In this document: positions 5,315 to 29,709 of the stretch, in pieces
Position numbering within the stretch: the first letter of the stretch is position 1
Layout: the number at the start of each line of letters is the position of its first letter
NCBI GenBank assembly: GCA_048886185.1
Contig: JBHLKY010000005.1
Coordinates: 170,458 to 202,457, forward strand
Origin: Candidatus Hermodarchaeota archaeon
Lineage (GTDB): Archaea > Asgardarchaeota > Heimdallarchaeia > Hodarchaeales > Hodarchaeaceae
Direction of reading: 5' to 3'
Length of the DNA: 32,000 bases
Notes under the pieces: generated by a model
Database searches by the model: none
What the model saw: the letters and a program-made list of their open reading frames with translations, nothing else
Told to the model about the DNA's origin: nothing
Translations under genes and position numbers: made by a program

Positions 5315-5320
5315 AGATAG

Positions 5321-13948: not shown

Positions 13949-13991
13949 TAATGAATAATTATGCAAAACATTTATGAATAAATATTCATAA
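13949..13991. promoter_or_regulatory. Tandem palindromic operator-like sites upstream of the NifX/ATPase operon
   Basis: 13972-13991 TTATGAAT-AAAT-ATTCATAA has perfect arms. A degenerate copy TAATGAAT-AATT-ATGCAAAA lies at 13949-13968. Confidence 0.65.
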
Positions 13992-14061: not shown

Positions 14062-14481
14062 TTGAAGATTGGTTTAGCTTCAACTGGAACTACTCTAGAT
14101 CTTTTATTTGCCAATGTATTTGGACGATGCTCTTTTTTTGTAATAGTTGACTCTGAAAACAAAGAAGTGTTAACTGTTTTTCCAAATAAGGCACGAAATG
14201 CTGCTGGTGGTGCAGGAATTCAGGCAGCTCAATCATTGATTGATCAAAAAATTGATGCAATAATAGCTCCTCGATTGGGTCCAAATGCTTGGAGTGTATT
14301 AAAGGGTGCTGGTGTAAAAATATACACAGGAATAAATGGTACTCTTCAGGAAAATATTGAAGCTTTTCTTGGAGGAAAATTAACTGAGATGACAGGTGCC
14401 TCACGATCAGGCATGGGACGTGGCCGGGGAGGACGTATGGGTCGTGGTGGAGGCCAAGGTTTGGAGGAGGATCAGGATTAA
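14062..14481 (+). CDS. NifB/NifX-family (dinitrogenase FeMo-cofactor-binding domain) protein with Gly/Arg-rich tail
   Basis: VFGRCSFFVIVD, GGAGIQAAQ, IIAPRLGPNAWSVLKGAGVKIY, tail GMGRGRGGRMGRGGG. TTG start preceded by GTGAGGT. Confidence 0.9.
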   Translation: MKIGLASTGTTLDLLFANVFGRCSFFVIVDSENKEVLTVFPNKARNAAGGAGIQAAQSLIDQKIDAIIAPRLGPNAWSVLKGAGVKIYTGINGTLQENIEAFLGGKLTEMTGASRSGMGRGRGGRMGRGGGQGLEEDQD

Positions 14482-14527
14482 AACCAAAAAGTTGCAATAA
14501 TAAGGACACCATTTGAGGTAAAATAAA

Positions 14528-14929
14528 ATGCGATTATGTATCCCTTCTGAAACAAGAGACGGACTTGAATCACAAGTAGGGTATCATTTTGGGCGAGTAC
14601 CATCATATACTATCTACGATGATGAAACAAAAAGGATTGAAATTGTTGAGAATACTTCATCTCATATGGGTGGAATAAAATTACCTGCAGAACTTTTACG
14701 TGATTATAATGTTGATGTTATGCTTTGTGGTGGTTTAGGTCGCCGGGCAATCCAATTATTCGAACAATTCGGTATAGAGGTCTATATAGGTGCCCATGGA
14801 ACCGTTGAGGACGCAATTAAACAGTATAATCGAAATAAATTGCGAATGGCAACCGATAAAGATGCCTGTGAAGAACATAAATATCGTGGGGAAACACATG
14901 GCGAAAACCATGAGCATCATCATCATTAG
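14528..14929 (+). CDS. NifB/NifX-family protein with His-rich tail
   Basis: HFGRVPSYTIYD, VMLCGGLGRRAIQLFEQFGIEVY, tail CEEHKYRGETHGENHEHHHH. Confidence 0.9.
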   Translation: MRLCIPSETRDGLESQVGYHFGRVPSYTIYDDETKRIEIVENTSSHMGGIKLPAELLRDYNVDVMLCGGLGRRAIQLFEQFGIEVYIGAHGTVEDAIKQYNRNKLRMATDKDACEEHKYRGETHGENHEHHHH

Positions 14930-14941
14930 GAGGCGCACTAT

Positions 14942-15796
14942 ACGATTATTAGTGTGGCTAGTGGTAAAGGTGGAACTGGAAAAACTACAATTGCTGTAAA
15001 TTTAGCCCTTTATCTGGCAAAATCGCATAAAGTAGCATTATTTGATGTAGATGTTGAAGAGCCAGATGATAATCAATTTCTGCATTTTAAGTTACTCACA
15101 CATAAGAGAGTTAATATTTCGAGACCACTAATTAATGAATCAATCTGTTCACATTGCGGTCTTTGTGCTGAATTATGCGAATTTAATGCGTTAGCAGTTT
15201 TACCAGCTCAAGTCATGGTATTCGAGGAATTATGTCATGGTTGTGGACTATGTTCAATGGCTTGTCCAGAGAAAGCTGTAGAAGAAAAATCTCATGAATT
15301 GGGAATTATTCGAAAATCTGACAATAGGAATAGTAATTTGGTATTTTTTGAAGGAAGGTTAAATATTGGGGAGGCCCTTGCAAAACCAATTATACGTGAA
15401 CTTAAAAAGATGGCATTTGAAGAAAAATACGAGCATATCATCTTGGATTTACCACCCGGGTCTGCTTGTCCTGTTATTGAAGCCTTATCTGAGACTGATT
15501 TTGCCGTCCTAGTAACAGAACCAACTCCTGCTGGCGAACATGACCTCAGAATTGCTATAGATCTTGTAAGGCAGCTTGATATCCCTTTTGGAATTGTGAA
15601 CAATCGTTCTGATGTGGGTGATGATCGTATTGATCGTCTCGTCATTAATGAAGATTATGAGTTGCTATTGAATATCCCTCATGATAACGAAATTCTTCAA
15701 CTTTACTCAAATGGTCATCCTCTTATCGGAAAGAAATGGGAATTCGATTCAACTTTTTCGCATCTGTGGACTCGAATTGGGGAGGTAATGAAATGA
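14942..15796 (+). CDS. MinD-superfamily P-loop ATPase with inserted 2x[4Fe-4S] ferredoxin domain (COG1149-like), copy 1
   Basis: SGKGGTGKTT, DVDVEEP, CSHCGLCAELC, CHGCGLCSMACP, DLPPGSACP. The frame is open upstream of GTG 14954, so the proposed start is ACG 14942 (see findings). Confidence 0.9.
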   Translation, partial: TIISVASGKGGTGKTTIAVNLALYLAKSHKVALFDVDVEEPDDNQFLHFKLLTHKRVNISRPLINESICSHCGLCAELCEFNALAVLPAQVMVFEELCHGCGLCSMACPEKAVEEKSHELGIIRKSDNRNSNLVFFEGRLNIGEALAKPIIRELKKMAFEEKYEHIILDLPPGSACPVIEALSETDFAVLVTEPTPAGEHDLRIAIDLVRQLDIPFGIVNNRSDVGDDRIDRLVINEDYELLLNIPHDNEILQLYSNGHPLIGKKWEFDSTFSHLWTRIGEVMK

Positions 15797-16692
15797 CTGA
15801 AAAAATTAAAAATCAAATAACTGTCCTTTCAGGTAAAGGAGGAACTGGAAAAACTACAATCACTGCAGTCCTTGCTCAATTATCAGCGTCTATTTCCTTG
15901 CTTGCAGATTGTGATGTTGATGCACCCAATTTACATCTACTCTTGAATCCTATTAATACCTCTGAAGAACGATTTATGAGTGGTAAAACAGCTATCATAG
16001 ATCCTAAAAAATGCGTTAAATGCGCAAAATGTCTAGATGTATGTCGCTATGGTGCAGTAACATCTGATTTTGATATTAAATCCATGAGTTGTGAAGGTTG
16101 TGCTGCTTGTGCTTGGGTTTGCCCTTCTAAGGCAATTATGATGGAGATTCGACCTTCTGGTATAGTTTATGAAGCTAAGACAAGATTTGGACCAATGGTC
16201 CATGCACGGTTAGATACTGGAGCCGAAAATTCTGGGAAATTAGTTAGCGAAGTTATTCAAAAGAGTCATTTCAAGGCAAAAGAGCATCACAAAGATCTAA
16301 TTATTGTTGATGGCAGTCCAGGGATAGGTTGCCCAGTAATAGCTGCTTTAACTAATGCAAAATTAGTAATCATAGTTGTTGAGCCTACTTCGACCGCAAT
16401 TCATGATATGAAAAGAATATTAGAACTCGTTTACTTTTTTAATCTACCTCCAGTAATTATCATTAATAAGGCCTCCATAAATGATGAAAAACGTCGAAAT
16501 ATTATTGAATTTTGCAAAGAAAGGCATATTTCTATTTTAGGGGAGATTCCATATAATTTAGAAATTTATAAGGCAATGATTAATAGAAAAACTGTTTTAG
16601 AGTATGGTATTAAAGATCTAGAGGATCCATTGAATAAAATGTGGAAAAAAATTCAAGATTTGCTACAATTAAACAGTGGGTGTTCTAAATAA
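15793..16692 (+). CDS. MinD-superfamily P-loop ATPase with inserted 2x[4Fe-4S] ferredoxin domain (COG1149-like), copy 2
   Basis: SGKGGTGKTT, DCDVDAPN, CVKCAKCLDVC, CEGCAACAWVCP, ENSGKLV, DGSPGIGCP. ATG 15793 overlaps the upstream TGA (ATGA) and follows GGAGGT. Confidence 0.92.
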   Translation: MTEKIKNQITVLSGKGGTGKTTITAVLAQLSASISLLADCDVDAPNLHLLLNPINTSEERFMSGKTAIIDPKKCVKCAKCLDVCRYGAVTSDFDIKSMSCEGCAACAWVCPSKAIMMEIRPSGIVYEAKTRFGPMVHARLDTGAENSGKLVSEVIQKSHFKAKEHHKDLIIVDGSPGIGCPVIAALTNAKLVIIVVEPTSTAIHDMKRILELVYFFNLPPVIIINKASINDEKRRNIIEFCKERHISILGEIPYNLEIYKAMINRKTVLEYGIKDLEDPLNKMWKKIQDLLQLNSGCSK

Positions 16693-17936
16693 TAAAGCAG
16701 GATAGAAAGGTTCTATTAGCTGAAGGAGAAAAGGTCGCATTTATAACTTTGTTATGCAACATTTTCTTGATTATTTTTAAAATTACGACAGGAGTATTCA
16801 TCAGAAGTATCGCCTTATTTGCTTCTGGTTTGGATGCTCTAATGGACTTAATAGCAACTTTAGCTGTTTTGTTTGGCCTTCATTATTCTCAAAAGGAACC
16901 CTCAGATCGATTTCCTTACGGATATTACCGAATGGAAACATTAGCTACTCTAATTGTTGCTATTTTCATTCTTTTATTTGGTCTAAGTGTTCTTATTGAA
17001 AGTATTGGTATTATTATTACTCCTAGTATGTTAATTCAACCTGTGTTTGGATTACTGATTTCCATTTTATCTGCTTTAGTAGCATTTGCCCTATATCGTT
17101 ATAATTTGAAAATTGGTACTAAAATAGCCTCAAATGCTCTGATTGGAACAGCAAAAGAATTTCAGCTTGATATTTTCACCAATTCTTTTGTTTTTTTGGG
17201 AATTTTAGCCTATCTTGTAGGATTTCCTCAATTGGAAGGATTTGTTGGTTTAATGATTAGTTTTCTTATTATCAAAACAGGACTAGAATTTGGAAGAACC
17301 TCCCTTTTAATCCTACTAGATGCTATTGATGACCCTGATATAATTGAACAAATCCGATCAATTGTAACACAATTTCCCCAGGTTCAAAAAGTGTCAAATA
17401 TTAGGATTAGACGCTCTGGACCATATTATTTCGCTGACATTGAAATACAAATGCTAGCAACAAAGACAGTAAAATCTCTTACGCATACAACTCACCAATT
17501 AGAATCATCACTAAAGGAAAAATTGTCTCAGTTAGATAGTATCATGATAAGCGTTGAACCCATTGAAAAAACTAAATTCAAAGTTGCGATAGCTGTTTCC
17601 TCTCTTGATACCAACATAAAAAACATTCCTACTGAACATTTTGGACTAGCATCAGCCTTTCTACTTGCTGACATTGATATTAGCAGTCAAACTATTAATA
17701 CAAGTCAATTAGTGGAAAATCCTCATAAGAAGGCTGAAAGAAAACGGGGAATTTTGGGAGCTAAATTTCTAGTGAATAAGGGAATCGATGTACTTGTGAT
17801 AAAGGATATTGGTACTTTTGGCGTCGGGCCAAAAGCTATTCTCACAGAGAATAATATTTTATTATATCAGGTTTGGGGCGAAACAATTCAAGAAATTCTG
17901 GAAGGTTTCCTAATTTATCATTCAGAAGCTAAATGA
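16689..17936 (+). CDS. Cation diffusion facilitator transporter fused to a C-terminal NifB/NifX domain
   Basis: SIALFASGLDALMD, FPYGYYRMETLA, CDF cytosolic domain (IRIRRSGPYYFADIEI), then EHFGLASAFLLAD...GAKFLVNKGIDVLV. The frame is open from 16689; the ORF track begins at TTG 16749 inside TM1. Confidence 0.88.
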   Translation: MIKQDRKVLLAEGEKVAFITLLCNIFLIIFKITTGVFIRSIALFASGLDALMDLIATLAVLFGLHYSQKEPSDRFPYGYYRMETLATLIVAIFILLFGLSVLIESIGIIITPSMLIQPVFGLLISILSALVAFALYRYNLKIGTKIASNALIGTAKEFQLDIFTNSFVFLGILAYLVGFPQLEGFVGLMISFLIIKTGLEFGRTSLLILLDAIDDPDIIEQIRSIVTQFPQVQKVSNIRIRRSGPYYFADIEIQMLATKTVKSLTHTTHQLESSLKEKLSQLDSIMISVEPIEKTKFKVAIAVSSLDTNIKNIPTEHFGLASAFLLADIDISSQTINTSQLVENPHKKAERKRGILGAKFLVNKGIDVLVIKDIGTFGVGPKAILTENNILLYQVWGETIQEILEGFLIYHSEAK

Positions 17937-18022
17937 TTATATACAATTATCCTTGAAATTGCGTGAAATGATGAAATAATCCGACTTAAATATAAGTTAG
18001 AAAAGCGATGAAGGAAAATTAA

Positions 18023-18820
18023 ATGCAAGCAAACTTACAAAAACAAGAACAAGAGATAATATCTCATATGAAACGGGTTAAGCGAAAGATTGTAGTTTTA
18101 TCGGGTAAAGGTGGCGTGGGAAAGTCGACTGTTGCAGCCAATCTTGCCTTGGGTTTTGCTGAAAAATTTCCTGGTAAGGTTGGTATTGCTGATTTAGACT
18201 TCTCAGGCCCTAATATCCCAAAAATCTTAGGTGTAGAAGCTGGAAGATTCTCTCCCCCAGAAAATAAAAAGTTTCATCCAATAAAAGGGCCTAAGGATGT
18301 TAAAATTGTGTCAATGGCCTTTCTTTTAGAGTCACCTTCAACACCTGTTGTATGGCGTGGCCCTCTAAAAATTAAAGCTCTTAGGCAATTTCTGACGGAT
18401 TTTATTTGGGGTGATTTAGAGGTGTTAATTTTCGACTTACCACCAGGAACAGGAGATGAAGCCATTTCCATTATGCAAATGATTCCTGATATGGATGGCG
18501 TTGTGATTGTTACCACTCCACAAGAAATAAGTCTCCTAGATACTGGTAAATCACTCGTTATGTCAAGAAAAATGGATCGTCCAGTCATTGGAATAATAGA
18601 AAACATGTCAGGGTTCATCTGCCCTTCTTGTGGAAAAAAACATGCAATATTTGGAGAAGGGGGTGGAGAAAGAATGGCTAGAGAGTTTGGAACTGAACTT
18701 CTTGGGCAGATTCCATTTGATCCTAAAATCAGAGCTGACGAGGATCAGGGAATTACCCAAGCTTTTAAGTATTTCACTCCTATTGTCGAGAAAATTCTTT
18801 TGAAAAGAATTAATTCATGA
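18023..18820 (+). CDS. mrp: Mrp/NBP35 (ApbC) family Fe-S cluster carrier ATPase
   Basis: VLSGKGGVGKST, PVVWRGP, DLPPGTGDE, VTTPQ, ENMSGFICPSCG, IPFDP. Confidence 0.95.
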   Translation: MQANLQKQEQEIISHMKRVKRKIVVLSGKGGVGKSTVAANLALGFAEKFPGKVGIADLDFSGPNIPKILGVEAGRFSPPENKKFHPIKGPKDVKIVSMAFLLESPSTPVVWRGPLKIKALRQFLTDFIWGDLEVLIFDLPPGTGDEAISIMQMIPDMDGVVIVTTPQEISLLDTGKSLVMSRKMDRPVIGIIENMSGFICPSCGKKHAIFGEGGGERMAREFGTELLGQIPFDPKIRADEDQGITQAFKYFTPIVEKILLKRINS

Positions 18821-18913
18821 ATAGAGGGATATTTGAAAGAATCTATTCTTTATATATTAATTGATGAAAAAAGAAAATTAAAAATTTCTTCATAATTTTA
18901 TGAGGGTAAATGG

Positions 18914-19693
18914 ATGTCTTCACAGCTTGCCCAACTAGCTGAACGAGCTTTAAAATTAATTAAACCATTTAAAAATCTGTTTATTAAGAAAGTAGTCATT
19001 GGAGTTCTTTACACAGGGATGGAATTAGAAGATGAAACAACTGGAGTGTCCTACACATTAACGGATCGTTCCGCCGACCACGAGGGCTACCATCGCCTTC
19101 TTCAAAATGGATTTCTTTCGGACCAAACATTATTTGATTTAATTGAATATTGTTCCTCTCCTTATGCTATATTGAGATCAATTGGAGTTGCTGCACTTAA
19201 CACTTTCAGTCAAGCTCACATTGATTTTTCTGATATCTCTTCTAAAGATATTATTGAGATTTTTAAGCCCACACCAGGCATGGTAGTAGGAATGGTAGGA
19301 AATATCAATCCAATTTCTCTTTACTTGGCTAAGAAAGGCATTTCAGTAAGGATTCTAGACAGATTTATGCCAGCTACCAGTATAAGCAGTATTTCTCAAG
19401 TTAATGAAGTATCAGATCTTGAAGTAGTTGATTCTATCTTTGTTTCTGGTTCTGCGTTAGTATTTGATAACTTTGATGAGATAATCCATTTATTATCCCA
19501 TATATCTGGAAAAAAAATTCTTATTGGACCATCAGCTCAAATATTTCCGAAATTAGCTTTTGATCTTGGATTTTCAGTGGTTGGTAGCTCAAGAATAATC
19601 AATTCCAATTTAACCATGAGAATTATACAGGAAGGTGGGGGATATAAATTTTTCAAAAACTATACCGAAAAATATGTTTTTATAAAAGAATAA
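18914..19693 (+). CDS. DUF364-family Rossmann-like protein (putative metal-binding)
   Basis: VVIGVLYTGMEL...GVSY, RSIGVAALN, VGMVGNI.P, IFVSGSALV, ILIGPSAQ.FP, VVGSS pattern. Confidence 0.75.
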   Translation: MSSQLAQLAERALKLIKPFKNLFIKKVVIGVLYTGMELEDETTGVSYTLTDRSADHEGYHRLLQNGFLSDQTLFDLIEYCSSPYAILRSIGVAALNTFSQAHIDFSDISSKDIIEIFKPTPGMVVGMVGNINPISLYLAKKGISVRILDRFMPATSISSISQVNEVSDLEVVDSIFVSGSALVFDNFDEIIHLLSHISGKKILIGPSAQIFPKLAFDLGFSVVGSSRIINSNLTMRIIQEGGGYKFFKNYTEKYVFIKE

Positions 19694-19734
19694 GCACTTT
19701 TAGATTAAGAAAAAGATAATGAAAGGACTTTTCG

Positions 19735-19788
19735 AATTTTGTGCATATGCACAAAATTTATTAACTAGTTTTGTGCTATAGCTCATTG
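19735..19788. promoter_or_regulatory. Perfect 24-bp palindrome plus degenerate second copy upstream of the DUF5320 gene
   Basis: 19735-19758 AATTTTGTGCATATGCACAAAATT. TATA-like TTTATTAA at 19757-19764. Second site TTTTGTGC-TATA-GCTCATTG at 19769-19788. Confidence 0.7.
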
Positions 19789-19799
19789 GTGATATTATT

Positions 19800-20156
19800 A
19801 TGCCTAGAGGAGATAGAACTGGACCATGGGGATTTGGCTCGATGACTGGCCGAGGATTAGGATATTGTGCTGGATATTCTACTCCGGGATATACAAAAGG
19901 GCCTGGAATGGGATGGGGTCGTAGGTGGGGAGGAGGAGGAGGTTGGGGTCGTAGTCGGGGATTTTATCCAAATTTATATTATTATCCACCTTATGGAACC
20001 CCTTCTTACCCCCCTACGATTGTACCTCCTTGGCCAACCACACTTGATCCAGAAGATGAATCAAAATATCTAGATCAGACACTAAAAAGTTTGAAAAAAG
20101 AGATCGAACTAATAGAGAAGAGATTGGAAGAATTAGCAAGTGAAAGGAAGGATTAA
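19800..20156 (+). CDS. DUF5320-family protein
   Basis: MPRGDRTGP.G.G.MTGRGLGYCAG N-terminus, Gly/Arg/Trp-rich middle, Pro/Tyr-rich linker and C-terminal coiled coil. Confidence 0.88.
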   Translation: MPRGDRTGPWGFGSMTGRGLGYCAGYSTPGYTKGPGMGWGRRWGGGGGWGRSRGFYPNLYYYPPYGTPSYPPTIVPPWPTTLDPEDESKYLDQTLKSLKKEIELIEKRLEELASERKD

Positions 20157-20186
20157 TTAATTTACTAATTGCAGTTATACATCCTT

Positions 20187-20212
20187 CCCTCCTTTTTCTA
20201 ATAAAAAGGGGG
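20187..20212 (+). terminator. Possible hairpin terminator after DUF5320
   Basis: CCTCCTTTTT-CTAAT-AAAAAGGGGG forms a 10-bp stem with one G-U pair, about 30 nt after the stop codon. Confidence 0.35.
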
Positions 20213-20321
20213 TATCTTTCAGCTCAATTGGTAATTTATACCATAAGAGCCTTTTTGAAACAAGAAACCCAATAATGAAAAAGACCCCATTTCATTAATC
20301 AGGAGTTTTAAGTGAATCTTA

Positions 20322-20783
20322 ATGCATGAAAAAGAACAACATGGATTACGAATCATCGAAGAAGATATTATGGAAGTATTGTTCAATTTGCATATTTCCA
20401 GGAATGGAAGACAACGTGTTAAAATGAAAGAAATTTTAGAGATTATGGAAGATAGACTTGCGAAAACCCAGCTGTCAAATATAGTACGCCGAAAACTTGA
20501 ACCAAGGGGATATGTTGATTATCTTCCCTATGAAGGTCTACTCTTAACCAAATTAGGATATCGGGTAGCTCGTCGAATTACTAGAAATCATCGGCTTGCA
20601 GAAGCCATGCTTTATCAAATTTTTGATATGCCATTCAATAAGGTTCACGAAGAGGCTTGTTATCTTGAGCATGGAATTTCTGATGAAATTGCAGAATACA
20701 TATATCGTAAGTTAAAAATGAAAATGACACCGTTTGGAATGCCCATTCCAATGAAGGAGAAAAATAAAGAGCCAGATTGTTGA
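20322..20783 (+). CDS. DtxR/MntR-family metal-dependent transcriptional regulator
   Basis: GYVDYLPYEGLLLTKLG, RNHRLAEAML, HEEACYLEHGIS and TPFGMPIP (CPHGNPIP-like). Confidence 0.88.
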   Translation: MHEKEQHGLRIIEEDIMEVLFNLHISRNGRQRVKMKEILEIMEDRLAKTQLSNIVRRKLEPRGYVDYLPYEGLLLTKLGYRVARRITRNHRLAEAMLYQIFDMPFNKVHEEACYLEHGISDEIAEYIYRKLKMKMTPFGMPIPMKEKNKEPDC

Positions 20784-21014
20784 GATAAGTCTCTAAATGA
20801 AATTCTTATAAGAATACCAGTAACATTAACTTGAATGCAAGATCTTTTTACAAACTTTGCTAAGAAATTAGAAATCTATTATATCCACGCTGTAGGAGTA
20901 AAAATGCATGTGAAGAAAATTGATAATGAGGGAGTTGTGGTTGAAATAAATAAAATATAACAATGAATTCATCTCTTGATTTCTAGGTTTCTTTGTGTCA
21001 AACCCAAAGTTTAA
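20784..21014 (+). pseudogene. Decayed C-terminal FeoA/SH3-like domain of the DtxR regulator
   Basis: In-frame continuation after TGA 20781 reads DKSLNEILIRIPVTLT*MQDLFTNFAKKLEIYYIHAVGVKMHVKKIDNEGVVVEINKI*Q*IHLLISRFLCVKPKV*. Length and pattern fit a DtxR FeoA domain. Confidence 0.5.
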
Positions 21015-21200
21015 ATCCCCAAAATGTCTATTTGATATTAATAAAAAACTTTTCCAAGAATTCAAGAAATCATGTTTGATAGAATTCAAATATATCCTCT
21101 AATTCAGAGGAATGAGTCAAAACAACGAATATTTTTATATCGTTGTTTTAAAATCCTGAAAAACAGTTTTATAAAGAAATGAAATCATAAATATTGGAGT

Positions 21201-21524
21201 GTGTTACATATTAGAGGTTCTGGCCGAGGTGGCCAAGGTGGTAGAAGAAAGCGTTTTAGGGGAGGAAGACCAAGAGTTCAACCTGTCATTAGTGGTGAAT
21301 GGAGTAGTTTAAATGGTGAGATTGAGTTGTCTCTTTCTAATGTAGAGTTAGAGGCCCTAAGATTGGTCGATGAAGAGAATTTGACTCAAGAGCAGGCCGC
21401 AGAACGAATGCATATTTCACGGGGAACTTTGTGGCGAATTTTGCAACAGGCAAGAAAAAAAGTCATTTTAGCGCTTAATTCTGGAAAAGCTTCTGTTCAT
21501 TTAAATATTAGTGAAGAAAAGTAA
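21201..21524 (+). CDS. DUF134-family predicted DNA-binding protein, copy 1
   Basis: ELEALRLVDEENLTQEQAAERMHISRGTLWRILQQARKKVILAL, with a Gly/Arg-rich N-terminus and GTG start. Confidence 0.88.
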   Translation: MLHIRGSGRGGQGGRRKRFRGGRPRVQPVISGEWSSLNGEIELSLSNVELEALRLVDEENLTQEQAAERMHISRGTLWRILQQARKKVILALNSGKASVHLNISEEK

Positions 21525-21731
21525 TGAAATTTTCCTCCCTACGAGAACACTTTTTTAGCTTTTAAATGATAATCTGATGAATAGAACCATTATTTTTGAA
21601 TTATTACTCTTTATTATTGTTTGAATAGCGTAATCCATGCTTTAAATAAAAGCAATTGAAATTAATTGTTTTAAAGAAAGGTTTTCTTTGTTTTAAAGAG
21701 AATTATAATAATCGAACATTTTATAAGGATT

Positions 21732-21749
21732 TGTTCACAAATGTGAACA
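21732..21749. promoter_or_regulatory. Palindromic operator-like site immediately upstream of feoA
   Basis: TGTTCACA-AA-TGTGAACA lies between TATA-like TTATAAG (21721-21727) and the SD-like AGGAGA (21751-21756). Confidence 0.6.
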
Positions 21750-21761
21750 TAGGAGAATGAT

Positions 21762-22007
21762 ATGATTCCACTTGGGCTTTTAACTGAGGGAGATGTAGCA
21801 GAGATTTCACATTCAGAAGGAGGCCGAGGAGTGATCTTAAGGGTCAACGAACTTGGTTTTTATCCTGGAAGCCGTATCAAGATGATTAGGAATGTAAAAG
21901 CAGGCCCAGTACTTGTGGAATTAAAAGGTTGTAGAATTGCAGTTGGCCGAGGAATTTCAATGAAGATTTTTTGTGATAAAATCAAGAAAACAATTATTGA
22001 ACAATAA
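21762..22007 (+). CDS. feoA: Ferrous iron transport protein A
   Basis: RVNELGFYPGSRIKMIRN...GPVLVELKGCRIAVGRGISMKIF, directly upstream of feoB. Confidence 0.92.
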   Translation: MIPLGLLTEGDVAEISHSEGGRGVILRVNELGFYPGSRIKMIRNVKAGPVLVELKGCRIAVGRGISMKIFCDKIKKTIIEQ

Positions 22008-22027
22008 AATCCTTTACAAAGGTAGAA

Positions 22028-24040
22028 TTGGTTGTTTCCCTTATGAAAATTGCCTTGGCTGGAAATCCTAATGTTGGTAAGACAGTCATTTTCAATTTCT
22101 TGACTGGATCTCATCAACATGTAGCTAATTTTCCTGGATGCACTGTTGAACATAAGAAGGGGAAATGCACTTTTGCCGGTAAAACAATGAATGTTATCGA
22201 TTTACCAGGTACTTATAGTCTTAGTGCATATTCTGAAGATGAAATCGTCTCAAGAGAATACCTAATAGATGAAAAACCTGATTTGATTATCAATGTGATT
22301 GATGCATCGAATTTAGAACGTAATTTATTTTTAACCATTCAATTATTGGAGTTGAAACTTCCAATTGTCTTAGTATTAAACATGCTTGACGTAGCTAAAT
22401 CCAAAGGGTTCCTTATTGATGTGGAACGTCTTAGCAAGAAATTAAATGTTCCAGTAATCCCAATGATCGCGACGAAAGGCGAGGGAATGATTGAACTTCT
22501 TAATATGATTCTACAGTACAGAGAAGATAGGAATATTGGATTATTAGTTAAAGGTTCTCTCAGAATCTATGAAGAGAAAATTGCAGACATCATCAAGAAG
22601 TTTGATGCTAGGGGTTTTCTAAACAATTATGATTATACTTGGCTCGGATTGAAACTTTTAGAACAAGATTCAATTATTAGAGGGATAGTAGATGATGCAG
22701 TGTCTAGAGAAAACCCAGAAAACAAAAAAATCTATTGGGAATTGGTAAAAGAGGTAATTCAAGACTTTAAAAACAAGATGAATTTCATAGATCCTGCTGT
22801 ATATATAGTAAATGAAAGATATCGTTTTATTGAAGATTTAATTGATGAAATCATCATTAAAAGAGGAGCAGCTTCTTCAAATATCACCTCCATGTTAGAT
22901 GAAGTTCTTACAGATAAGTATCTTGGTATTCCTATCTTTTTAACAAGTTTGTGGATTATTTTTACCTTTACTTTCACTCTCTCTGAACCCTTTGTACTTA
23001 TCCTTGAGGAGATATTTACCTTCTTATCGTTTCAAATCAAATTTATAATCCCTAATCCAGTTTTAGCTTCCATAGTTTCAGGTATTATAGATGGAGTCGG
23101 GACAATTCTTGTTTTTATCCCTACCCTTTTTCTGCTATTTTTTGCAATGGCTATACTTGAAGATTCTGGTTACATGGCACGAGCTGCTTTTATAATGGAT
23201 AAATGGATGGAAAAAGTAGGTTTGCATGGAAAATCTTTCATCCCATTGATGCTTGGATTTGGGTGCACGGTTCCCGCAATAATGGCCACACGCTCAATAA
23301 GAGGGAAACAAGATAGATTAATAACAATCGCCGTTACTCCTTTTATATCTTGTTCAGCTCGTTTACCAATATACGTTTTATTCGCTGGTGTGTTTTTTCC
23401 TGATTACGCTGGATTTGCTATTCTTACAATGTATGTACTTGGGATCGTAATAGCTGTTCTAAGCGCTTTTGTACTTAATAAGGTCATTTTCACTCATGAG
23501 GATAGACTATTCATTATGGAACTCCCTGAGTATCAGAAACCTAGTATAATTGTAGCCACAAGGGAAATGTGGAATCGTGGTTCCATATTTTTAAAAAAAG
23601 CGGGTACAATAATTCTAGGAGCGTCATTATTAGTATGGACATTAAGTAATATACCATTTGGTGCAACTACCAAAAATACTCTTTTAGGAATGGTAGGAAA
23701 TGTTCTTCAACCCTTGTTTATACCATTTGGATGGAGTTGGGAATTTATTGCTGCTTTAATACTAGGTTTAATAGCTAAAGAAATTATTATAGCAACTTTA
23801 GGTCTCCTTGTTGGGACATCTCTTGAAACATTTTTAGGTTCTTCTCTTTCTCTTAGCCAAGCTTTTTCTTTTATGGTATTCGCTTTACTCTATGTACCTT
23901 GTATTGCTACGATCTCTGTAATGAAAGCAGAAACAAGATCTTGGAAAATAACAGTATTATTAGTTATTAGTTATATTATAATTGCTTATGCAGTAGCTTT
24001 GTTCTTTCGATTAGCTTTATTGATATTAGGATTTGATTAA
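22028..24040 (+). CDS. feoB: Ferrous iron transport protein B
   Basis: GNPNVGKT, NFPGCTVE, DLPGTYSL, LNMLD, EDSGYMARAAF, GFGCTVPAIMATR, SCSARLP, LYVPCIAT. Start may be ATG 22043. Confidence 0.97.
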   Translation: MVVSLMKIALAGNPNVGKTVIFNFLTGSHQHVANFPGCTVEHKKGKCTFAGKTMNVIDLPGTYSLSAYSEDEIVSREYLIDEKPDLIINVIDASNLERNLFLTIQLLELKLPIVLVLNMLDVAKSKGFLIDVERLSKKLNVPVIPMIATKGEGMIELLNMILQYREDRNIGLLVKGSLRIYEEKIADIIKKFDARGFLNNYDYTWLGLKLLEQDSIIRGIVDDAVSRENPENKKIYWELVKEVIQDFKNKMNFIDPAVYIVNERYRFIEDLIDEIIIKRGAASSNITSMLDEVLTDKYLGIPIFLTSLWIIFTFTFTLSEPFVLILEEIFTFLSFQIKFIIPNPVLASIVSGIIDGVGTILVFIPTLFLLFFAMAILEDSGYMARAAFIMDKWMEKVGLHGKSFIPLMLGFGCTVPAIMATRSIRGKQDRLITIAVTPFISCSARLPIYVLFAGVFFPDYAGFAILTMYVLGIVIAVLSAFVLNKVIFTHEDRLFIMELPEYQKPSIIVATREMWNRGSIFLKKAGTIILGASLLVWTLSNIPFGATTKNTLLGMVGNVLQPLFIPFGWSWEFIAALILGLIAKEIIIATLGLLVGTSLETFLGSSLSLSQAFSFMVFALLYVPCIATISVMKAETRSWKITVLLVISYIIIAYAVALFFRLALLILGFD

Positions 24041-24055
24041 AGTAGAGGATAATAA

Positions 24056-24490
24056 ATGCAAAACAATAGGTTGAAGAGATTTACTTATGAAGCAGGAGTC
24101 TATAGCGTTCTTTATATTGTTATAGGCGCATTTGGGCTATTAACATTTTTTTTTGATTCATTCTTTGAAAGTACTCTCATAACGGATCCACTTGAGTCAC
24201 TGATATTAATTTTAATCGCAATAATCTATTTTAGAGGATTTCTAAAGCTTAAGAGTAAAGATAGTTTAGGTATGGCTTATATCTTTGTTGCAGCAATTAT
24301 GGGCCTCTTGTTAGGGGGATTAACTTTCTTAAATTTTGCTGTTAACGGATTTCTAAGGGGTACATTGGAGACACTGCCTTTTTCAAAGATTTTTAAAGAT
24401 TATTTCTCCTTTTCAATAATAGTGGGTAGTTTAAGCATCATTCCACTCAAAGACGTCCAATCTTTTGAAGATAAGATGATAGAAAAATAG
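24056..24490 (+). CDS. Hypothetical 4-TM membrane protein, probably co-transcribed with feoAB
   Basis: Starts 15 nt after feoB with GAGGA upstream and has four hydrophobic segments. Confidence 0.7.
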   Translation: MQNNRLKRFTYEAGVYSVLYIVIGAFGLLTFFFDSFFESTLITDPLESLILILIAIIYFRGFLKLKSKDSLGMAYIFVAAIMGLLLGGLTFLNFAVNGFLRGTLETLPFSKIFKDYFSFSIIVGSLSIIPLKDVQSFEDKMIEK

Positions 24491-25066: not shown

Positions 25067-26587
25067 TTGGTTACTGAAATGAAAGAAAAAATTGATACAA
25101 ATAATAAGAAACTCATTGTTATAGGAGCTGGATTTGGGGGTATTGCATCTGCTATTCGAATGCAAGCTGCAGGTTATAATGTACTTTTATTAGAGAAAAC
25201 TAACCAAATTGGTGGTAAAGCTTCTGTCTTTAAGATCAATAATTATATTTTCGATGCAGGACCAACTGCAATAACGGTTCCTCATTTAATTCAGGAGTTA
25301 TTCGAATTAAATAATGAGAATATGAAAGATTATTTAGAATTAATTCCAATTAGACCCTATTTTCGAATTTATTTTCATGATGGCTCTTATTTCAACTACT
25401 CGACTGTAGAGGAAAATTTTGCCCAAATAAAGAAAATAAGTCCTGAGGATCTTCAGGGTTATAAAAAGATGATGAAATCGATTGAACCAATTTTCCAGAA
25501 GGGTTTTATAGAACTTTCTGATAAACCTTTCGACTCATTCTTCTCAATGTTAAAGATTGGCCCTCCATTACTAAAGTTGGGCGCCTACAGATCAGTATAT
25601 TCTTATGTTTCAAAATATATAAAGAATAAGAAATTACGAATGGTTTTCAGTTATCATCCCTTACTTATTGGAGGAAATCCTTTCAAAATAACTTCGATTT
25701 ATATGCTTATTCAAGCTATTGAAAAAGAATGGGGAGTATGGTTTGCAAAAGGAGGAACTGGTTCTTTAGTTCAGGAGTTTGGAAAACTATTCAAGCGATT
25801 GGGAGGAGAAATAGCCTTAAATAGTGAAGTGGTTAAAATAATTGTCTCTGATAATTCATCTGTTGAAGGAGTAACTACTAAGGATGGGAAATATTATGAT
25901 GCTTCGATAGTTATTTCCAATGTTCCTGTTGCGACCACTTACATGCATATGATTGAAGAAAAATATCGTAAAAAAAATTCCAATAACAGATATTCAAAAG
26001 CAACATATGGGATGAGTGTATTTATGATCTATTTTGGTACAGATTGTAAGTATCCAAATCTCCATATTCATAATATTTTATTAGGCCCTAATTATAAAAG
26101 TTTGATTACTGATATCTTTAATAAAAAGCGCTTAAGCAAGGAAGGTAACTTTTCAGCTTATCTATATATTCCTACACAAGTAGATCCCACCCTTGCTCCA
26201 GGAGAAGGGGAATCATGTTATATCTTAGTCCCAGTGCCCAATCAAGATTCTAATATAGATTGGGAACATAAGAAAGCTCAGTTTCGTGATCATATTATCA
26301 GCTCCATTGAAAGTAGATTCATGCCAGATTTGCAAAAGCACATCATCGTTGAAAAAATAATGACTCCAGCAGATTTTGAAAAGTTGCATTCTGATTATAA
26401 AGGAGCAGTATTTTCGCTAGCTCCAACTTTCACCCAATCTGCTTGGTTTAGGCCTCACAATAAATCAGAGGACATTAAGGGACTATATCTTGTTGGAGCT
26501 GGTACTCATCCAGGTGGGGGCATTCCAGGAGTACTTACAAGTGCAAAAATAACTTCTAACCAAATACTTCAATCTTCATTACCCTGA
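25067..26587 (+). CDS. crtI: Phytoene desaturase (CrtI-type carotenoid desaturase)
   Basis: IVIGAGFGGIASA, FDAGPT, FSYHPLLIGGNPF, GVWFAKGGTG, GAVFSLAPTFTQSAWFRPHN, LVGAGTHPGGGIPGV. Start may be ATG 25079. The exact CrtI/CrtN/CrtD subtype is not resolved. Confidence 0.9.
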   Translation: MVTEMKEKIDTNNKKLIVIGAGFGGIASAIRMQAAGYNVLLLEKTNQIGGKASVFKINNYIFDAGPTAITVPHLIQELFELNNENMKDYLELIPIRPYFRIYFHDGSYFNYSTVEENFAQIKKISPEDLQGYKKMMKSIEPIFQKGFIELSDKPFDSFFSMLKIGPPLLKLGAYRSVYSYVSKYIKNKKLRMVFSYHPLLIGGNPFKITSIYMLIQAIEKEWGVWFAKGGTGSLVQEFGKLFKRLGGEIALNSEVVKIIVSDNSSVEGVTTKDGKYYDASIVISNVPVATTYMHMIEEKYRKKNSNNRYSKATYGMSVFMIYFGTDCKYPNLHIHNILLGPNYKSLITDIFNKKRLSKEGNFSAYLYIPTQVDPTLAPGEGESCYILVPVPNQDSNIDWEHKKAQFRDHIISSIESRFMPDLQKHIIVEKIMTPADFEKLHSDYKGAVFSLAPTFTQSAWFRPHNKSEDIKGLYLVGAGTHPGGGIPGVLTSAKITSNQILQSSLP

Positions 26588-26828: not shown

Positions 26829-27260
26829 TTAAATAGACTGAATTCGATGATCATTATTTGAGTGAATATGATAATGAATTTTATGTGATTTGCATTGTTC
26901 GCATTGAACTGTTAAACTTCCTTTTTCAAAAACTGATTGAACATGTCCACAATCTTCACAATGATAATAATCCTCTGGATTAGCAATTTTAATAGCTAAA
27001 CCATTTAGTAATGCTTTAGCAATTTTACGATGAGCAGACTCTAGATGCCTTGAAATAGTTGACTGACTGATTCTCATCCTCTCCGCAGCTTCCTGCTGCT
27101 TCATCCCTTTTAAATCAGTCAATCGAATGGCTTCTAACTCCTCAATAGTTATTGATACTTCATCAGGAACATCTAGTAATGGTATACCACGAGGCTTAAA
27201 ATAGTATTGTGAGGGTTCACATCGAACAGTTCTAGGATTTTTACCACGAGGAATATTCAT
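26829..27260 (-). CDS. DUF134-family predicted DNA-binding protein with C-terminal zinc ribbon, copy 2
   Basis: PRGKNPRTV...YYFKPRGIP, EELEAIRLTDLKGMKQQEAAERMRISQSTISRHLESAHRKIAKAL, CEDCG...CEQCKS. Confidence 0.9.
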   Translation of the reverse strand: MNIPRGKNPRTVRCEPSQYYFKPRGIPLLDVPDEVSITIEELEAIRLTDLKGMKQQEAAERMRISQSTISRHLESAHRKIAKALLNGLAIKIANPEDYYHCEDCGHVQSVFEKGSLTVQCEQCKSHKIHYHIHSNNDHRIQSI

Positions 27261-27328: not shown

Positions 27329-27348
27329 TTATGAATTATTATTCATAA
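27329..27348. promoter_or_regulatory. Palindromic operator-like site upstream of DUF134 copy 2
   Basis: TTATGAAT-TATT-ATTCATAA has arms identical to the site at 13972. On the minus strand it is followed by TATA-like TTTATTAA (27324-27317). Confidence 0.7.
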
Positions 27349-27406: not shown

Positions 27407-29194
27407 TTAACGATCATGTAAAATATAATATTCATTTACCATTTTTTCAATATCTACAATAGATCCACGAGTTGGACCTTCCAAGAGTGGTTCTTTAGTA
27501 AATCTTTCTGGAAGAGTATCTTCTTCTTTCGTCAGACCAAACTTTTGGTTAAGCTTATAATCGCGTTCAATGGACTCATGTAGAATTTTCATCAGATACT
27601 CAGGAGTATAATCTATTCCTGTGCCATAAGTTAATAGATTTGATGCGTTTTCTAAATTTAGAATATCCATACACAGGCCAATATTTTTGCACATGGTCAT
27701 GCAATCTGTAAGGAGTGCAATTTTTTCTGAATATGTAACCAATGCTGCTTTACCTTCCTCTGAAATCCTATCAGCAGCTTTCTCTGTCCCAAATCGTTTT
27801 TTCGCTTCTTTCCACCTCATTGTTAACTCGAAAAAAGGTTCAGCTCTAAGATGATCTCCTCCTCGCGACGCGATTGCGTATGTCAGGCCGTAAGCTTTCA
27901 AACCTCGGGGATCACCACATATTATATCCAAACCTTTCACCTGCATAACGAGTTTCCTTACTTCACTATTGAATTTCTGGGAGAATTTTGTCGCTCCCTC
28001 TGCGAATTCATCACCGATCCCCTTTCGGAAGATTATCATATCAACTATTTTTCTTATTTTATTAATATCCCCCCAGGACAGCTCTATGCCACCTACATCT
28101 TCTGGTGTAATTAATTCTTTTTCTTGGCATTCCATCAACCATCCTATCACTTCGCATGTAGAAAGTGAGTCCAAACCTACCTGATTGAGGTAATAATTCA
28201 TCTCTAACGCGAACTTCAGATCAGATACTCCTATTCGAGTGGTAAACCCACAAAGTGTTTCATATTCTGGCCCTTCAGCTTCATAATCACCACATACATA
28301 ATACCGAGAACAGTGAAGATTACAATTGAAACAACCTTTGTTCTTCACCTTGTATTTCTCAGCAAGATGTTCTCCAGAAACTTTATCGAGGTAATCACAC
28401 ACCCCTTTCTGGAAGTGATTCGTAGGTAGAATACCAATTCCATTTAGATCCGTCATTAACATTGTCGTTCCAAGGTGATAGCGTTTTTTGTACTCAATAT
28501 GATTGAAGATTTCCTTCTTGAGTTTATTTACTTCAGACATAAATGCAAGTGGTTCTGCTACTTCAACAGAACGATGGCCACGTACTGCAACGGCTTTCAG
28601 GTTTTTCGAGCCCATAACCGCTCCCATCCCTGTTCTACCACTTGCTCGATTTCCGCTGGATATAACCGAGGAATAAAGAACTTTCTTCTCGCCTGCAGAC
28701 CCTATAGCAGCAACTTGGATTGAGAAATCTCTGTTCTTTTGCCGAATTTTATTGGTTGTATCGACAACAAAACTCCCCTCATATTCAGGACAATCGATGA
28801 ATAGAACCTCTGAATCTGTTATGAGTAAATAAAGTAGATTCCTTGCTTTCCCAGTAATGATTATTTGATCAAATCCTGTTAGTTTCATCTCGGCTCCAAA
28901 TTGTCCACCTGCAGCAGAGTCTCCAAGAATACCTGTGAGAGGAGATTTTGCTGATATCGTAAAATAAGCAGAGGCAGGTAAAAATGATCCTGTTAATGGG
29001 CCAATCCCAAAGATCAGAATATTATCTGGACTAAGGGGATCACAATGTGGATCTAATTCTTCATACAATCGTTTTGTATTTGCTGCACGACCACCTATTA
29101 CATTCTTGATCCATGTATTCTTTAAACTATCAACCTTCCATTTTCTTTCTGTTAGATCAATACGTAATATTTTTCCTCCGTAACCATACATCAA
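27407..29194 (-). CDS. aor: Tungsten-dependent aldehyde:ferredoxin oxidoreductase family, large subunit
   Basis: GYGGKILRIDLT, SAKSPLTG.LGDS.AGG.FG.EMK, GRTGMGAVMGSKNLKAVAVRG, GCFNCNLHC, EGPEYET, GLDSLS, SRGGDHL, DCMTMCK. Confidence 0.95.
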   Translation of the reverse strand: MMYGYGGKILRIDLTERKWKVDSLKNTWIKNVIGGRAANTKRLYEELDPHCDPLSPDNILIFGIGPLTGSFLPASAYFTISAKSPLTGILGDSAAGGQFGAEMKLTGFDQIIITGKARNLLYLLITDSEVLFIDCPEYEGSFVVDTTNKIRQKNRDFSIQVAAIGSAGEKKVLYSSVISSGNRASGRTGMGAVMGSKNLKAVAVRGHRSVEVAEPLAFMSEVNKLKKEIFNHIEYKKRYHLGTTMLMTDLNGIGILPTNHFQKGVCDYLDKVSGEHLAEKYKVKNKGCFNCNLHCSRYYVCGDYEAEGPEYETLCGFTTRIGVSDLKFALEMNYYLNQVGLDSLSTCEVIGWLMECQEKELITPEDVGGIELSWGDINKIRKIVDMIIFRKGIGDEFAEGATKFSQKFNSEVRKLVMQVKGLDIICGDPRGLKAYGLTYAIASRGGDHLRAEPFFELTMRWKEAKKRFGTEKAADRISEEGKAALVTYSEKIALLTDCMTMCKNIGLCMDILNLENASNLLTYGTGIDYTPEYLMKILHESIERDYKLNQKFGLTKEEDTLPERFTKEPLLEGPTRGSIVDIEKMVNEYYILHDR

Positions 29195-29196
29195 GA

Positions 29197-29709
29197 TTAC
29201 CTCCTCCAGTTTTTCCTCACTTGTATCCCTAATTTTTTAATATAAAGGGTTCTTTTTTCACTAGGATTCATTTTTTTTGCTATCTCTTTCAAATTAGATA
29301 GAGAAGGTCCAGCTAAACCATGTATATAAGCAATTATTTCCTCAGTACAAACATCAACACACTTTGGTGAACCACCACATAGATCACAGACGTAGACAAA
29401 TTGATTAAAAATCTCAATAGCTCCAATTGGGCAGTTATGCTCACATTTTCCACAAAGCGTGCATAAGGTATGAGAAATAATTATCTGGCCTTTATCTCCG
29501 ATTGTGATTGCATTTGATGGGCAATCCATACAATAACGTTCTTGACATTGAAGACAAAGAACTGGTCCGTCAATCCCTATCTGAAACAATTGAACTACTT
29601 TAACTCGTGCCATGTTTCGATTGACTCTACCTGTATGAAACATGGCACAGGATGTCTCACACATCCGACAGCCTGTACATTTACTTATGTTAACTTGAAT
29701 CATCATCAA
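29197..29709 (-). CDS. Polyferredoxin (4x[4Fe-4S]-type) electron-transfer subunit of the AOR operon
   Basis: CTGCRMCETSC, CLQCQERYCMDCP, CTLCGKCEHNCP, CDLCGGSPKCVDVC. Its 3' end carries the GGAGGAGGT SD for aor. Confidence 0.92.
   Translation of the reverse strand: MMMIQVNISKCTGCRMCETSCAMFHTGRVNRNMARVKVVQLFQIGIDGPVLCLQCQERYCMDCPSNAITIGDKGQIIISHTLCTLCGKCEHNCPIGAIEIFNQFVYVCDLCGGSPKCVDVCTEEIIAYIHGLAGPSLSNLKEIAKKMNPSEKRTLYIKKLGIQVRKNWRR

Follow-up and report, generated by a model that had tools for sequence, protein, structure and literature searches.

A 32,000-nucleotide stretch of contig JBHLKY010000005.1 (the window) from a Candidatus Hermodarchaeota archaeon of the Asgard order Hodarchaeales carries, between positions 14062 and 24490, a run of metal- and cluster-related genes that an initial annotation had described as a complete, uncharacterised iron-sulfur (Fe-S) or heterometal cofactor island. 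The conserved part of this run is very probably an Asgard variant of the ORP (orange protein)-type metal-sulfur module of strict anaerobes. It takes the form of an eight-gene operon (14062-20156) encoding two small NifX-fold proteins (NifX1 and NifX2), two MinD-type ATPases with inserted ferredoxin domains (MinD-Fd1 and MinD-Fd2), a cation diffusion facilitator fused to a NifX domain (CDF·NifX), an Mrp/NBP35 protein (Mrp), a DUF364 protein, and a DUF5320 protein. The central idea of the annotation is borne out, in that the genes for NifX-like proteins and MinD-ferredoxin ATPases together make up a conserved metal-sulfur module that uses ATP and is independent of nitrogenase. By contrast, its picture of a complete island, in which iron import belongs to the same pathway, is not supported, since the iron-uptake genes feoAB, a DtxR-family regulator gene, and a small regulator-like gene (DUF134a) have control sites and oligo-T stops of their own and show no conserved adjacency to the module. 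Taken as a whole, an ORP-type module that would load iron-sulfide, with the iron-uptake genes standing apart, is the best explanation available and has, in our estimate, about an even chance of being correct.

The comparison rests on the composition that the ORP complex has in Desulfovibrio vulgaris Hildenborough (Orp3/4/5/8/9, DVU2103-DVU2109), as given in PMC6345978 and PMC8359166. Orp3 and Orp4 are ATPases that each carry two ferredoxin motifs, Orp5 and Orp8 are NifX-like, Orp8 being a homologue of the Mo-Cu orange protein, and Orp9 is MrpORP (PMC6345978, PMC8359166). Both systems thus comprise two paralogous MinD-type 2x[4Fe-4S] ATPases, two small proteins of the NifX/MTH1175 fold, one kind of which is an orange-protein homologue, and an Mrp/NBP35 protein closest to MrpORP. 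Restriction to anaerobes is a further trait that they have in common. For the bacterial complex, a role in cell division has been proposed only "putatively" (PMC6345978), and MrpORP was found to localise at the pole (PMC6345978, PMC3897727). In vitro, MrpORP hands its cluster to ORP apo-proteins, Orp3 and Orp4 among them (PMC6345978), and expression of the orp operons is limited to conditions of very low redox potential (PMC8359166). The two systems differ in that the Asgard Mrp lacks the C-terminal NifX ("Di-Nase") domain of its bacterial counterpart, a NifX domain sitting instead on the CDF transporter. Moreover, the bacterial genes form two divergent operons controlled by sigma-54, OrpR, and IHF, whereas the archaeal host has one operon, with additional DUF364 and DUF5320 genes, a DUF134 protein and palindromic operator for its control, and no enhancer-binding protein gene in the window. 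Given this homology to a published complex, the label "uncharacterised" is too strong; the fusion of a CDF transporter to an MTH1175-type domain had likewise been noted before (PMC1874648).

The genome assessed comprises 4.84 Mb in 75 contigs and is 96% complete. Protein families were assigned by Pfam and NCBIfam profile searches, which recovered every family that had been named (NifX, ferredoxin-ATPases, Mrp/NBP35, CDF, DUF364, DUF5320, DtxR, DUF134, and feoAB). The genes are indeed co-oriented, all lying on the + strand, but they number 13 rather than the 14 originally counted; the additional one may correspond to the decayed remains of the DtxR C-terminus (20784-21008), in which there are four in-frame stops. 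The absence of nif structural genes from the window extends to the entire genome, where profile searches over all 4.84 Mb gave no match to PF00148 (NifDK/EN-type) and none above cut-off to PF00142 (NifH). The module has the fold family PF02579 in common with NifX, NafY, and the C-terminal domain of NifB, with no nifDK/EN or nifH found in this genome. The genome contains three PF02579 domains, all within the 14062-24490 cluster. An AOR gene and a polyferredoxin gene lie downstream, as described earlier (Table 1).

The core of the module recurs well outside this genome. Loci related through the CDF·NifX protein all stem from Hodarchaeota, Heimdallarchaeota, or Promethearchaeota metagenome-assembled genomes (57-80% identity), and the order (DUF134b)-NifX1-NifX2-MinD-Fd1-MinD-Fd2-CDF·NifX, in which DUF134b is a Cys- and His-rich DUF134 protein, is kept in 6-7 Hodarchaeales loci. 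Mrp, DUF364, DUF5320, DtxR, and DUF134a are found in only some Hodarchaeales loci, or in rearranged positions, and FeoB is matched in these loci just once, by a gene in locus L013 that is 28% identical and lies ~5 kb away from the module. Twelve distant loci were also compared, representing ten distant Asgard families and two unrelated metagenome contigs. One or more NifX-like genes followed by MinD-Fd1 and MinD-Fd2 were present in 12/12, accompanied by DUF134 in 10/12, CDF·NifX in 5/12, DUF5320 in 4/12, Mrp in 3/12, and AOR in 1/12; feoAB occurred near the module in 1/12, at a distance of 8 kb. Loci L015 and L021 are independent distant clusters that combine CDF·NifX, DUF134, NifX, and two MinD-Fd genes. 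The clustering of the core is beyond chance, which is untrue of feoAB or DtxR.

Phylogenetic profiling confirmed the independence from nitrogenase. The ATPase pair, nearly always encoded by two adjacent genes, is present in 101/151 Asgard genomes (42/53 genera), compared with 4/151 for the nitrogenase-type domain PF00148. Service to the tungsten enzyme W-AOR, which had been suggested as the purpose of the system, fails the same kind of comparison: AOR is encoded in 147/151 Asgard genomes, mostly in multiple copies, including 46/50 of those without the module, which is thus not a required AOR factor. A role for the module as an AOR maturase is unsupported on the same grounds and in view of the ~13 AOR paralogues in the present genome. 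The many AOR copies in Asgard genomes do imply a large demand for tungsten or molybdenum. The sole real tie between the operon and the AOR region is DUF134b, which adjoins AOR and carries the operon operator.

Within the operon, gaps range from -4 to 106 nt, including 12-nt, -4, and -1 gaps indicative of translational coupling, and no oligo-T run is found inside it. Oligo-T runs do occur 3' of DUF5320 (at 20193 and 20252), of DtxR, of DUF134a, and of TM144, the gene that follows feoB. Gaps, T-runs, and separate control sites together point to four predicted transcription units, namely the eight-gene operon, DtxR, DUF134a, and feoA-feoB-TM144. The palindrome TTATGAAT-N4-ATTCATAA exists in exactly two copies in the 4.84-Mb genome, one at the NifX1 promoter (site B) and the other at the promoter of DUF134b, and a degenerate copy (site A) lies 23 bp upstream of site B. 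This tandem pair is kept, while the flanks diverge, in five related loci (L005, L007, L008, L009, and L013), and the operator also precedes DUF134b in L008. GAAT-N4-ATTC palindromes were found within ~100 nt upstream of the module in 7/12 distant loci; because the total number of operator-like palindromes in the distant loci (28) is not above that in shuffles (23 +/- 4), only their position before the module is telling.

DUF134b encodes a helix-turn-helix protein that combines an N-terminal Cys with a CxxC...CxxC arrangement at the C-terminus and a His-rich tail, the Cys and His residues being kept in all orthologues. Its gene lies directly upstream of NifX1 in L005, L007, L010, and L013 and is the operon's first gene in most relatives. 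Here it is found 13 kb from the operon, adjoining AOR, and comparison with the relatives indicates that it has moved away in this genome. With its conserved Cys and His residues and an operator common to the operon, DUF134b stands out as the candidate regulator of these genes, one that would sense a metal or cluster.

Both ATPases, which are ~28% identical to each other, have the deviant Walker A motif GKGGTGKT and carry a 2x[4Fe-4S] ferredoxin domain as an insert. Each also has an invariant Cys at a distance of seven residues past the Walker-B Asp (Cys176 in MinD-Fd1 and Cys180 in MinD-Fd2). The two CxxCxxCxxxC motifs with their eight ferredoxin Cys are kept in both proteins, as is the switch-II Cys, and this extends to the distant copies in L015 and L021. 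An AlphaFold2 model of MinD-Fd1 (predicted local distance difference test score, 86.5) adopts a MinD-type fold, for which MinD is the closest solved structure and ApbC, Cfd1, ATPase-type HypB, CooC1, BchL, and NifH are further neighbours; none of the solved structures carries a ferredoxin insert in a MinD-type fold. The signature lysine of the deviant Walker A motif and the MinD-type fold are common to MinD-Fd, NifH, BchL, CooC, ATPase-type HypB, and the Mrp-ApbC-Nbp35 group. The number of interface Cys per subunit differs, however, with one in MinD-Fd, two in NifH, and a CxxC in Mrp, and in MinD-Fd the first beta-alpha unit is followed by an inserted 2x[4Fe-4S] ferredoxin domain. A complex prediction for MinD-Fd1, MinD-Fd2, and NifX2 returned a score of 0.00, which is evidence neither way.

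The start sites of these genes deserve a brief comment. For MinD-Fd2, an initial start at 15736 was replaced by ATG 15793, which forms an ATGA overlap with the MinD-Fd1 stop. MinD-Fd1 itself has no conserved canonical start. Its first canonical codon, GTG 14954, is replaced by ATC or GTA in three orthologues, whereas the candidate ACG at 14942 is kept in 7/7 and lies 8 nt after GGAGG or GGTGG. NifX2 and MinD-Fd1 occupy one reading frame (14927-14956), separated in all seven of seven orthologues by one TAG and exactly four codons. This arrangement suggests either ACG initiation by termination-reinitiation or TAG read-through, which would yield a NifX2-ATPase fusion.

Among solved structures, NifX1 is best matched by MTH1175 (6e-21), followed by the Desulfovibrio gigas ORP 2wfb (2.2e-10). 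It has a conserved Cys within FGRC, and its C-terminal tail, a cationic (GxGRG)n sequence, is kept in 6 orthologues. NifX2 matches PH0822 (PDB 2yx6; 4e-16) and, again, 2wfb (5.5e-6); alignment of its orthologues shows the motifs HFGR and SSHMGG, Cys114 as an invariant residue, and a conserved His-rich C-terminal tail. NifX1 resembles the iron-sulfur storage clade of IssA and MTH1175. IssA (SipA, PF2025) of Pyrococcus furiosus is a NifX-family thioferrate store with a cationic, Gly- and aromatic-rich tail, and its discoverers placed MTH1175 in the IssA clade (PMC5524996); the initial annotation was therefore right to place SipA, now called IssA, in the NifB/X family. Like IssA, NifX1 is an IPR003731/PF02579 protein; it is closest, among solved structures, to MTH1175, and it ends in a conserved cationic Gly-rich tail. 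The two differ in that the aromatic-rich part resides here on a separate protein, the DUF5320 product, whose W/G/R/Y/P-rich half resembles the IssA tail in composition. DUF5320 begins with the N-terminal motif MPRGDRTGPxGxG..GRGLGYCxG, continues with this W/G/R/Y/P-rich stretch, and ends in a coiled coil, its composition being conserved. In the ESM Atlas, NifX-DUF5320 fusions make up 14-34% of members in clusters of 172-192 aa, and NifX is also fused to DUF134 (29%), Fer4, CDF, and a MamP-like magnetochrome protein.

CDF·NifX consists of a membrane transporter, a cytoplasmic dimerisation domain, and a Cys-free C-terminal domain of the NifX fold. Alignment with YiiP/FieF gives a transport site of D-D-E-D, as opposed to D-D-H-D in YiiP, and distant NifX-fused CDFs have H-D-E-D or H-D-H-D at these positions. 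The protein scores 188 bits against TIGR01297 (cut-off, 82). Its best equivalog-type matches, namely MamB, MamM, MntE, and FieF, all remain below cut-off, the FieF models reaching ~100 bits where 420-447 are needed. The six-transmembrane Cation_efflux and ZT_dimer domains are shared with FieF/YiiP and MamB/MamM; in contrast to YiiP, sites B and C are not conserved in CDF·NifX, which is embedded in an ORP-type operon. The fusion is widespread, being found in 14 Atlas clusters, and many of the 50%-identity representatives among the matches listed are fusions of 390-450 aa. The same architecture is seen in Cdf1/CdfB of Acidithiobacillus ferrooxidans, a CDF-MTH1175 fusion whose gene belongs to a predicted Fur-box operon (PMC1874648, PMC2631029). 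The Atlas distribution and the A. ferrooxidans case (PMC1874648) rule out a fusion specific to Asgard archaea. As to its start, a conserved N-terminus (…RKxLLAEGEKxxFIT…) is encoded 5' of the first canonical start codon, TTG 16749, and the database gene call begins at ATA 16692, with a one-base overlap with the MinD-Fd2 stop. CDF·NifX is, besides MinD-Fd1, the second gene of the operon lacking a canonical start.

The closest NCBIfam model for Mrp is MrpORP (NF041136), which it matches with 301.8 bits over model positions 1-232 of 365; the score falls below the cut-off of 450 because the C-terminal NifX domain is missing. A stand-alone Mrp paralogue, 78% identical, is encoded on contig C28, and the operon Mrp is a dedicated second copy. 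DUF364 is syntenic with the module in L005, L006, and L008, and was found in 0/12 distant module loci, its link to the module being confined to Hodarchaeales.

How might such a module operate? In the mechanism that we tentatively favour, and to which we assign somewhat less than an even chance, it handles inorganic iron-sulfide. DUF134b would sense a metal or cluster through its Cys/His-rich C-terminus and control both the operon and its own gene. MinD-Fd1 and MinD-Fd2 would form an ATP-dependent heterodimer, in which electrons may enter through the four [4Fe-4S] clusters and pass to a dimer-interface site formed by the invariant switch-II Cys, as in NifH-class proteins. This heterodimer could load inorganic iron-sulfide, in the form of Fe-S clusters or thioferrate-like polymers, onto the NifX carriers or unload it from them, and the material would be held by the carriers and their tails, namely the cationic Arg-Gly tail of NifX1, the His-rich one of NifX2, and DUF5320 with its W/G/R-rich stretch. 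Mrp, a dedicated copy, may mature the ATPases' own clusters, as MrpORP does for Orp3/Orp4 in vitro, or pass clusters on. Finally, CDF·NifX would move surplus Fe(II) out of the cytoplasm, its NifX domain serving as a cytoplasmic docking or sensing site.

Several observations point toward this mechanism: the likeness of the tails to that of IssA, the NifX fusions, the FieF/MamB-like CDF with its all-carboxylate site, the recurrent Mrp, the invariant Cys after Walker B, the membership of the ATPases in the fold class of MinD, ApbC, HypB, CooC, BchL, and NifH, and the anticorrelation with SufB. With regard to the latter, canonical SufB is encoded in 10/151 Asgard genomes; the module is absent from 8/10 of these and present in 99/141 of the others. 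The SufB-containing genomes without the module include all six of one family (f4), whose genus g5 also lacks AOR. This pattern fits, weakly, an anaerobe-only function that was lost on adaptation to oxygen.

A number of points nevertheless weigh against the iron-sulfide mechanism. The switch-II Cys may correspond to the NifH cluster ligand Cys132, but this equivalence is drawn from residue numbering (Asp125, Cys132) rather than from a residue-level structural alignment. The SufB anticorrelation is weak because it represents only ~four independent lineages. Fe-S assembly in this genome appears to rest on an IscS-IscU pair (C20:14860-16489), no SufB/D (PF01458) having been found in the 96%-complete assembly, and ferritin-like genes are present as well; the module is thus unneeded for basic Fe-S supply or iron storage. 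The IscS-IscU pair likewise disposes of the idea that the genome lacks an Fe-S scaffold and uses the module as its replacement. The NifX1 tail is ~30 residues long and free of aromatics, as compared with the 70-residue, aromatic-bearing tail of IssA. A search for long DUF5320 fusions returned only two proteins, both DUF5320 alone, and the 120 matches listed in a near-length search were all PF17253 alone, with no NifX fusion; the NifX-DUF5320 fusion therefore rests solely on minority shares of Atlas clusters. The feoA promoter lacks the operon operator, which leaves iron-responsive control of the operon conjectural. Furthermore, DUF364 has been linked elsewhere to uptake of Mo, W, or V (PMC2954201; bioRxiv 10.1101/2024.03.05.583561), and the only metal cluster observed in vivo on an ORP-family protein, according to work cited in PMC6345978, is a Mo-Cu-S cluster and not an iron-sulfide.

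These last points lead to the main rival explanation, Mo/W thiometallate handling, which we consider rather unlikely. Here, the NifX-fold proteins would bind thiomolybdate- or thiotungstate-type heterometal clusters like the S2MoS2CuS2MoS2 of orange protein, the ATPases and DUF364 would supply, buffer, or detoxify Mo/W for tungsto- and molybdo-enzymes, and CDF·NifX would export a partner cation. NifX1 does match orange protein, the carrier of a Mo-Cu cluster (references in PMC6345978), and DUF364 adjoins Mo/W/V transporters in other organisms and shows cofitness with nifH in M. maripaludis (PMC2954201; bioRxiv 10.1101/2024.03.05.583561); it is, however, absent from all 12 distant modules. Similarly, the numerous AOR paralogues and the presence of AOR, polyferredoxin, and a SorA/MsrP-like Mo enzyme near the cluster, both here and in L008, have to be set against the AOR-containing genomes that lack the module (46/50) and against ~20 loci in which no Mo/W transporter or molybdenum cofactor gene was found in or beside it. 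"Mo or Fe efflux" was suggested for the A. ferrooxidans CDF-MTH1175 fusion, whose gene has a ModA-like neighbour (PMC1874648), but CDFs carry divalent cations and not oxyanions or thioanions, and Mrp and the ferredoxin inserts indicate Fe-S chemistry.

The remaining explanations are less probable still. A single integrated pathway of 13-14 genes, in which FeoAB would import iron for clusters that are built or stored and then delivered to W-AOR and polyferredoxin, is improbable: all genes are co-oriented and iron- or cluster-related, feoAB encodes the only Fe(II) importer in the genome, DUF134b with its operon operator comes directly after AOR, and polyferredoxin and AOR genes lie immediately upstream of NifX1 in L008, yet feoA has a different and unique palindrome, oligo-T runs and gaps divide the genes into four transcription units, the local DtxR is truncated, and feoAB accompanies the module in the single distant locus mentioned above (8 kb off), the Hodarchaeales loci having one 28%-identical FeoB match. 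In addition, the link to AOR is limited to the present genome and L008, and the phylogenetic profile fails. A shade less probable is a maturation factor for one metalloenzyme other than nitrogenase, such as hydrogenase, carbon monoxide dehydrogenase, or some other enzyme rich in Fe-S clusters, on the pattern of NifH/NifEN/NifX, CooC, and HypB. Although the fold class includes CooC1, ATPase-type HypB, BchL, and NifH, and the NifX family carries cofactor precursors in nitrogenase assembly (summarised in PMC5524996), no target enzyme is conserved beside the module in ~20 loci, and a module found in two thirds of the Asgard genomes, and in many unrelated anaerobes besides, is more likely to have a general role than one tied to a single enzyme. 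Least probable of all is spatial positioning or cell division, as proposed for the D. vulgaris ORP complex, with the MinD-like ATPases placing cargo at the membrane or pole. MinD proteins are indeed the closest solved folds, and the Desulfovibrio papers describe ORP as "putatively involved in cell division" and MrpORP as polar (PMC6345978, PMC3897727). That proposal is itself termed putative, however, and the Asgard ATPases keep eight cluster Cys and the switch-II Cys, invariably come with NifX-fold carriers, in many cases also with a CDF transporter and Mrp, and have no division gene linked to the module.

The ORP-type module is among the most widespread gene sets of unsolved function in strict anaerobes and is near-core in Asgard archaea. 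As a discovery, the present case is limited, this kind of module having been published already. It does provide new handles, namely DUF134b as candidate regulator with an operator at two predicted targets, the D-D-E-D site of CDF·NifX, the invariant switch-II Cys in both ATPases, and carrier tails that resemble the IssA tail. Should the iron-sulfide mechanism hold, it would show how iron and sulfide are stored and mobilised in anaerobes, among them the archaea most closely related to eukaryotes; should it fail, these handles would still serve for testing the Mo/W alternative. A more far-reaching version, which we regard as doubtful, is that the MinD-Fd heterodimer acts as a NifH-like, ATP-driven reductase of low potential that builds or dissolves a thioferrate-like store on tail-bearing NifX proteins and DUF5320, with CDF·NifX as its outlet. 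Such a cycle would form part of a cysteine-desulfurase-independent iron-sulfur economy common to strict anaerobes, including most Asgard archaea, and would have been lost with adaptation to oxygen and the acquisition of SufBCD.

The genes that follow the operon (Table 1) are ordinary iron-homeostasis neighbours: feoAB, the truncated DtxR, and DUF134a were placed beside the module by local rearrangement. DtxR retains its dimerisation domain, its C-terminal domain is interrupted, and it reaches no NCBIfam cut-off. The decayed C-terminus is colinear with the 229-aa orthologue in L005 (73% identity over 229 residues), with four in-frame stops and no frameshift, and an intact 242-aa paralogue is encoded on contig C7. 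When up to 1 mismatch is allowed, the palindrome before feoA has no second copy in the genome; two-mismatch near-copies lie at C27:33894 and C42:4574. It differs from the operon operator and is a candidate operator for an iron regulator, either DtxR or DUF134a; its uniqueness led us to reject it as a co-controller of the operon. The feoAB genes are single-copy, are the only Fe(II) importer genes of the genome, and adjoin the module in this genome alone. TM144, which starts 15 nt after feoB, encodes a single-copy protein of ~4 transmembrane segments without Cys or His and may represent an unrecognised Feo accessory subunit. No second ORP-like locus was found around the second Mrp or the second DtxR.

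Table 1. Features of the module and its surroundings, in window coordinates
Feature	Position	Strand	Assignment and remarks
Operator site A	13949-13968		degenerate copy TAATGAATAATTATGCAAAA; 23 bp upstream of site B
Operator site B	13972-13991		perfect palindrome TTATGAATAAATATTCATAA; 71 nt before NifX1 start
NifX1	14062-14481	+	PF02579, 66.9 bits
NifX2	14528-14929	+	PF02579, 76.5 bits
MinD-Fd1	14942/14954-15796	+	Pfam ParA/CbiA + Fer4
MinD-Fd2	15793-16692	+	Pfam; ATPase paralogue of MinD-Fd1
CDF·NifX	16692/16749-17936	+	PF01545, 131.2 bits; PF16916, 53.2 bits; PF02579
Mrp/NBP35	18023-18820	+	PF10609, 287 bits; CPSC (C200, C203)
DUF4213+DUF364	18914-19693	+	Pfam; "putative heavy-metal chelation" fold; single-copy
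DUF5320	19800-20156	+	PF17253, 99 bits; last gene of operon
DtxR-family regulator	20322-20783 (153 aa), decayed tail to 21008	+	PF02742; tblastn against L005 orthologue
DUF134a	21201-21524	+	PF02001, 62 bits; small helix-turn-helix protein, RG-rich N-terminus, no Cys; separate unit
feoA palindrome	21732-21749		TGTTCACA-AA-TGTGAACA (= TGTTCACAAATGTGAACA), perfect 8-2-8; directly before feoA ribosome-binding site
FeoA	21762-22007	+	PF04023
FeoB	22028-24040	+	TIGR00437, 623.6 bits (cut-off 315.65); FeoB_N, Gate, FeoB_C
TM144	24056-24490	+	144-aa membrane protein; no Pfam/NCBIfam match
DUF134b	26829-27260	-	PF02001, 74.5 bits; Zn-ribbon-like matches
Second exact operator copy	27329-27348		TTATGAATTATTATTCATAA; 69 nt upstream of DUF134b start
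AOR	27407-29194	-	Pfam
Polyferredoxin	29197-29709	-	Pfam

Other parts of the window were surveyed as well. A search against Rfam revealed no RNA family in the window, and a scan for sigma-70 promoters and terminators gave fewer sites than in shuffles, the model being bacterial and thus not applicable to an archaeal host. An upstream pyridoxal phosphate enzyme, considered as a sulfur source, was rejected as such, being a threonine/serine dehydratase (433 bits; cut-off, 371). Positions 4613-7126 encode an ABC ATPase followed by a 601-aa protein without a Pfam match, and a separate 388-aa protein with a sub-threshold match only is encoded at 9273-10439. Finally, a CrtI-family phytoene desaturase, notable in an Asgard archaeon, is encoded at 25067-26587 (535 bits; cut-off, 238) and has a 54%-identical paralogue on contig C18.

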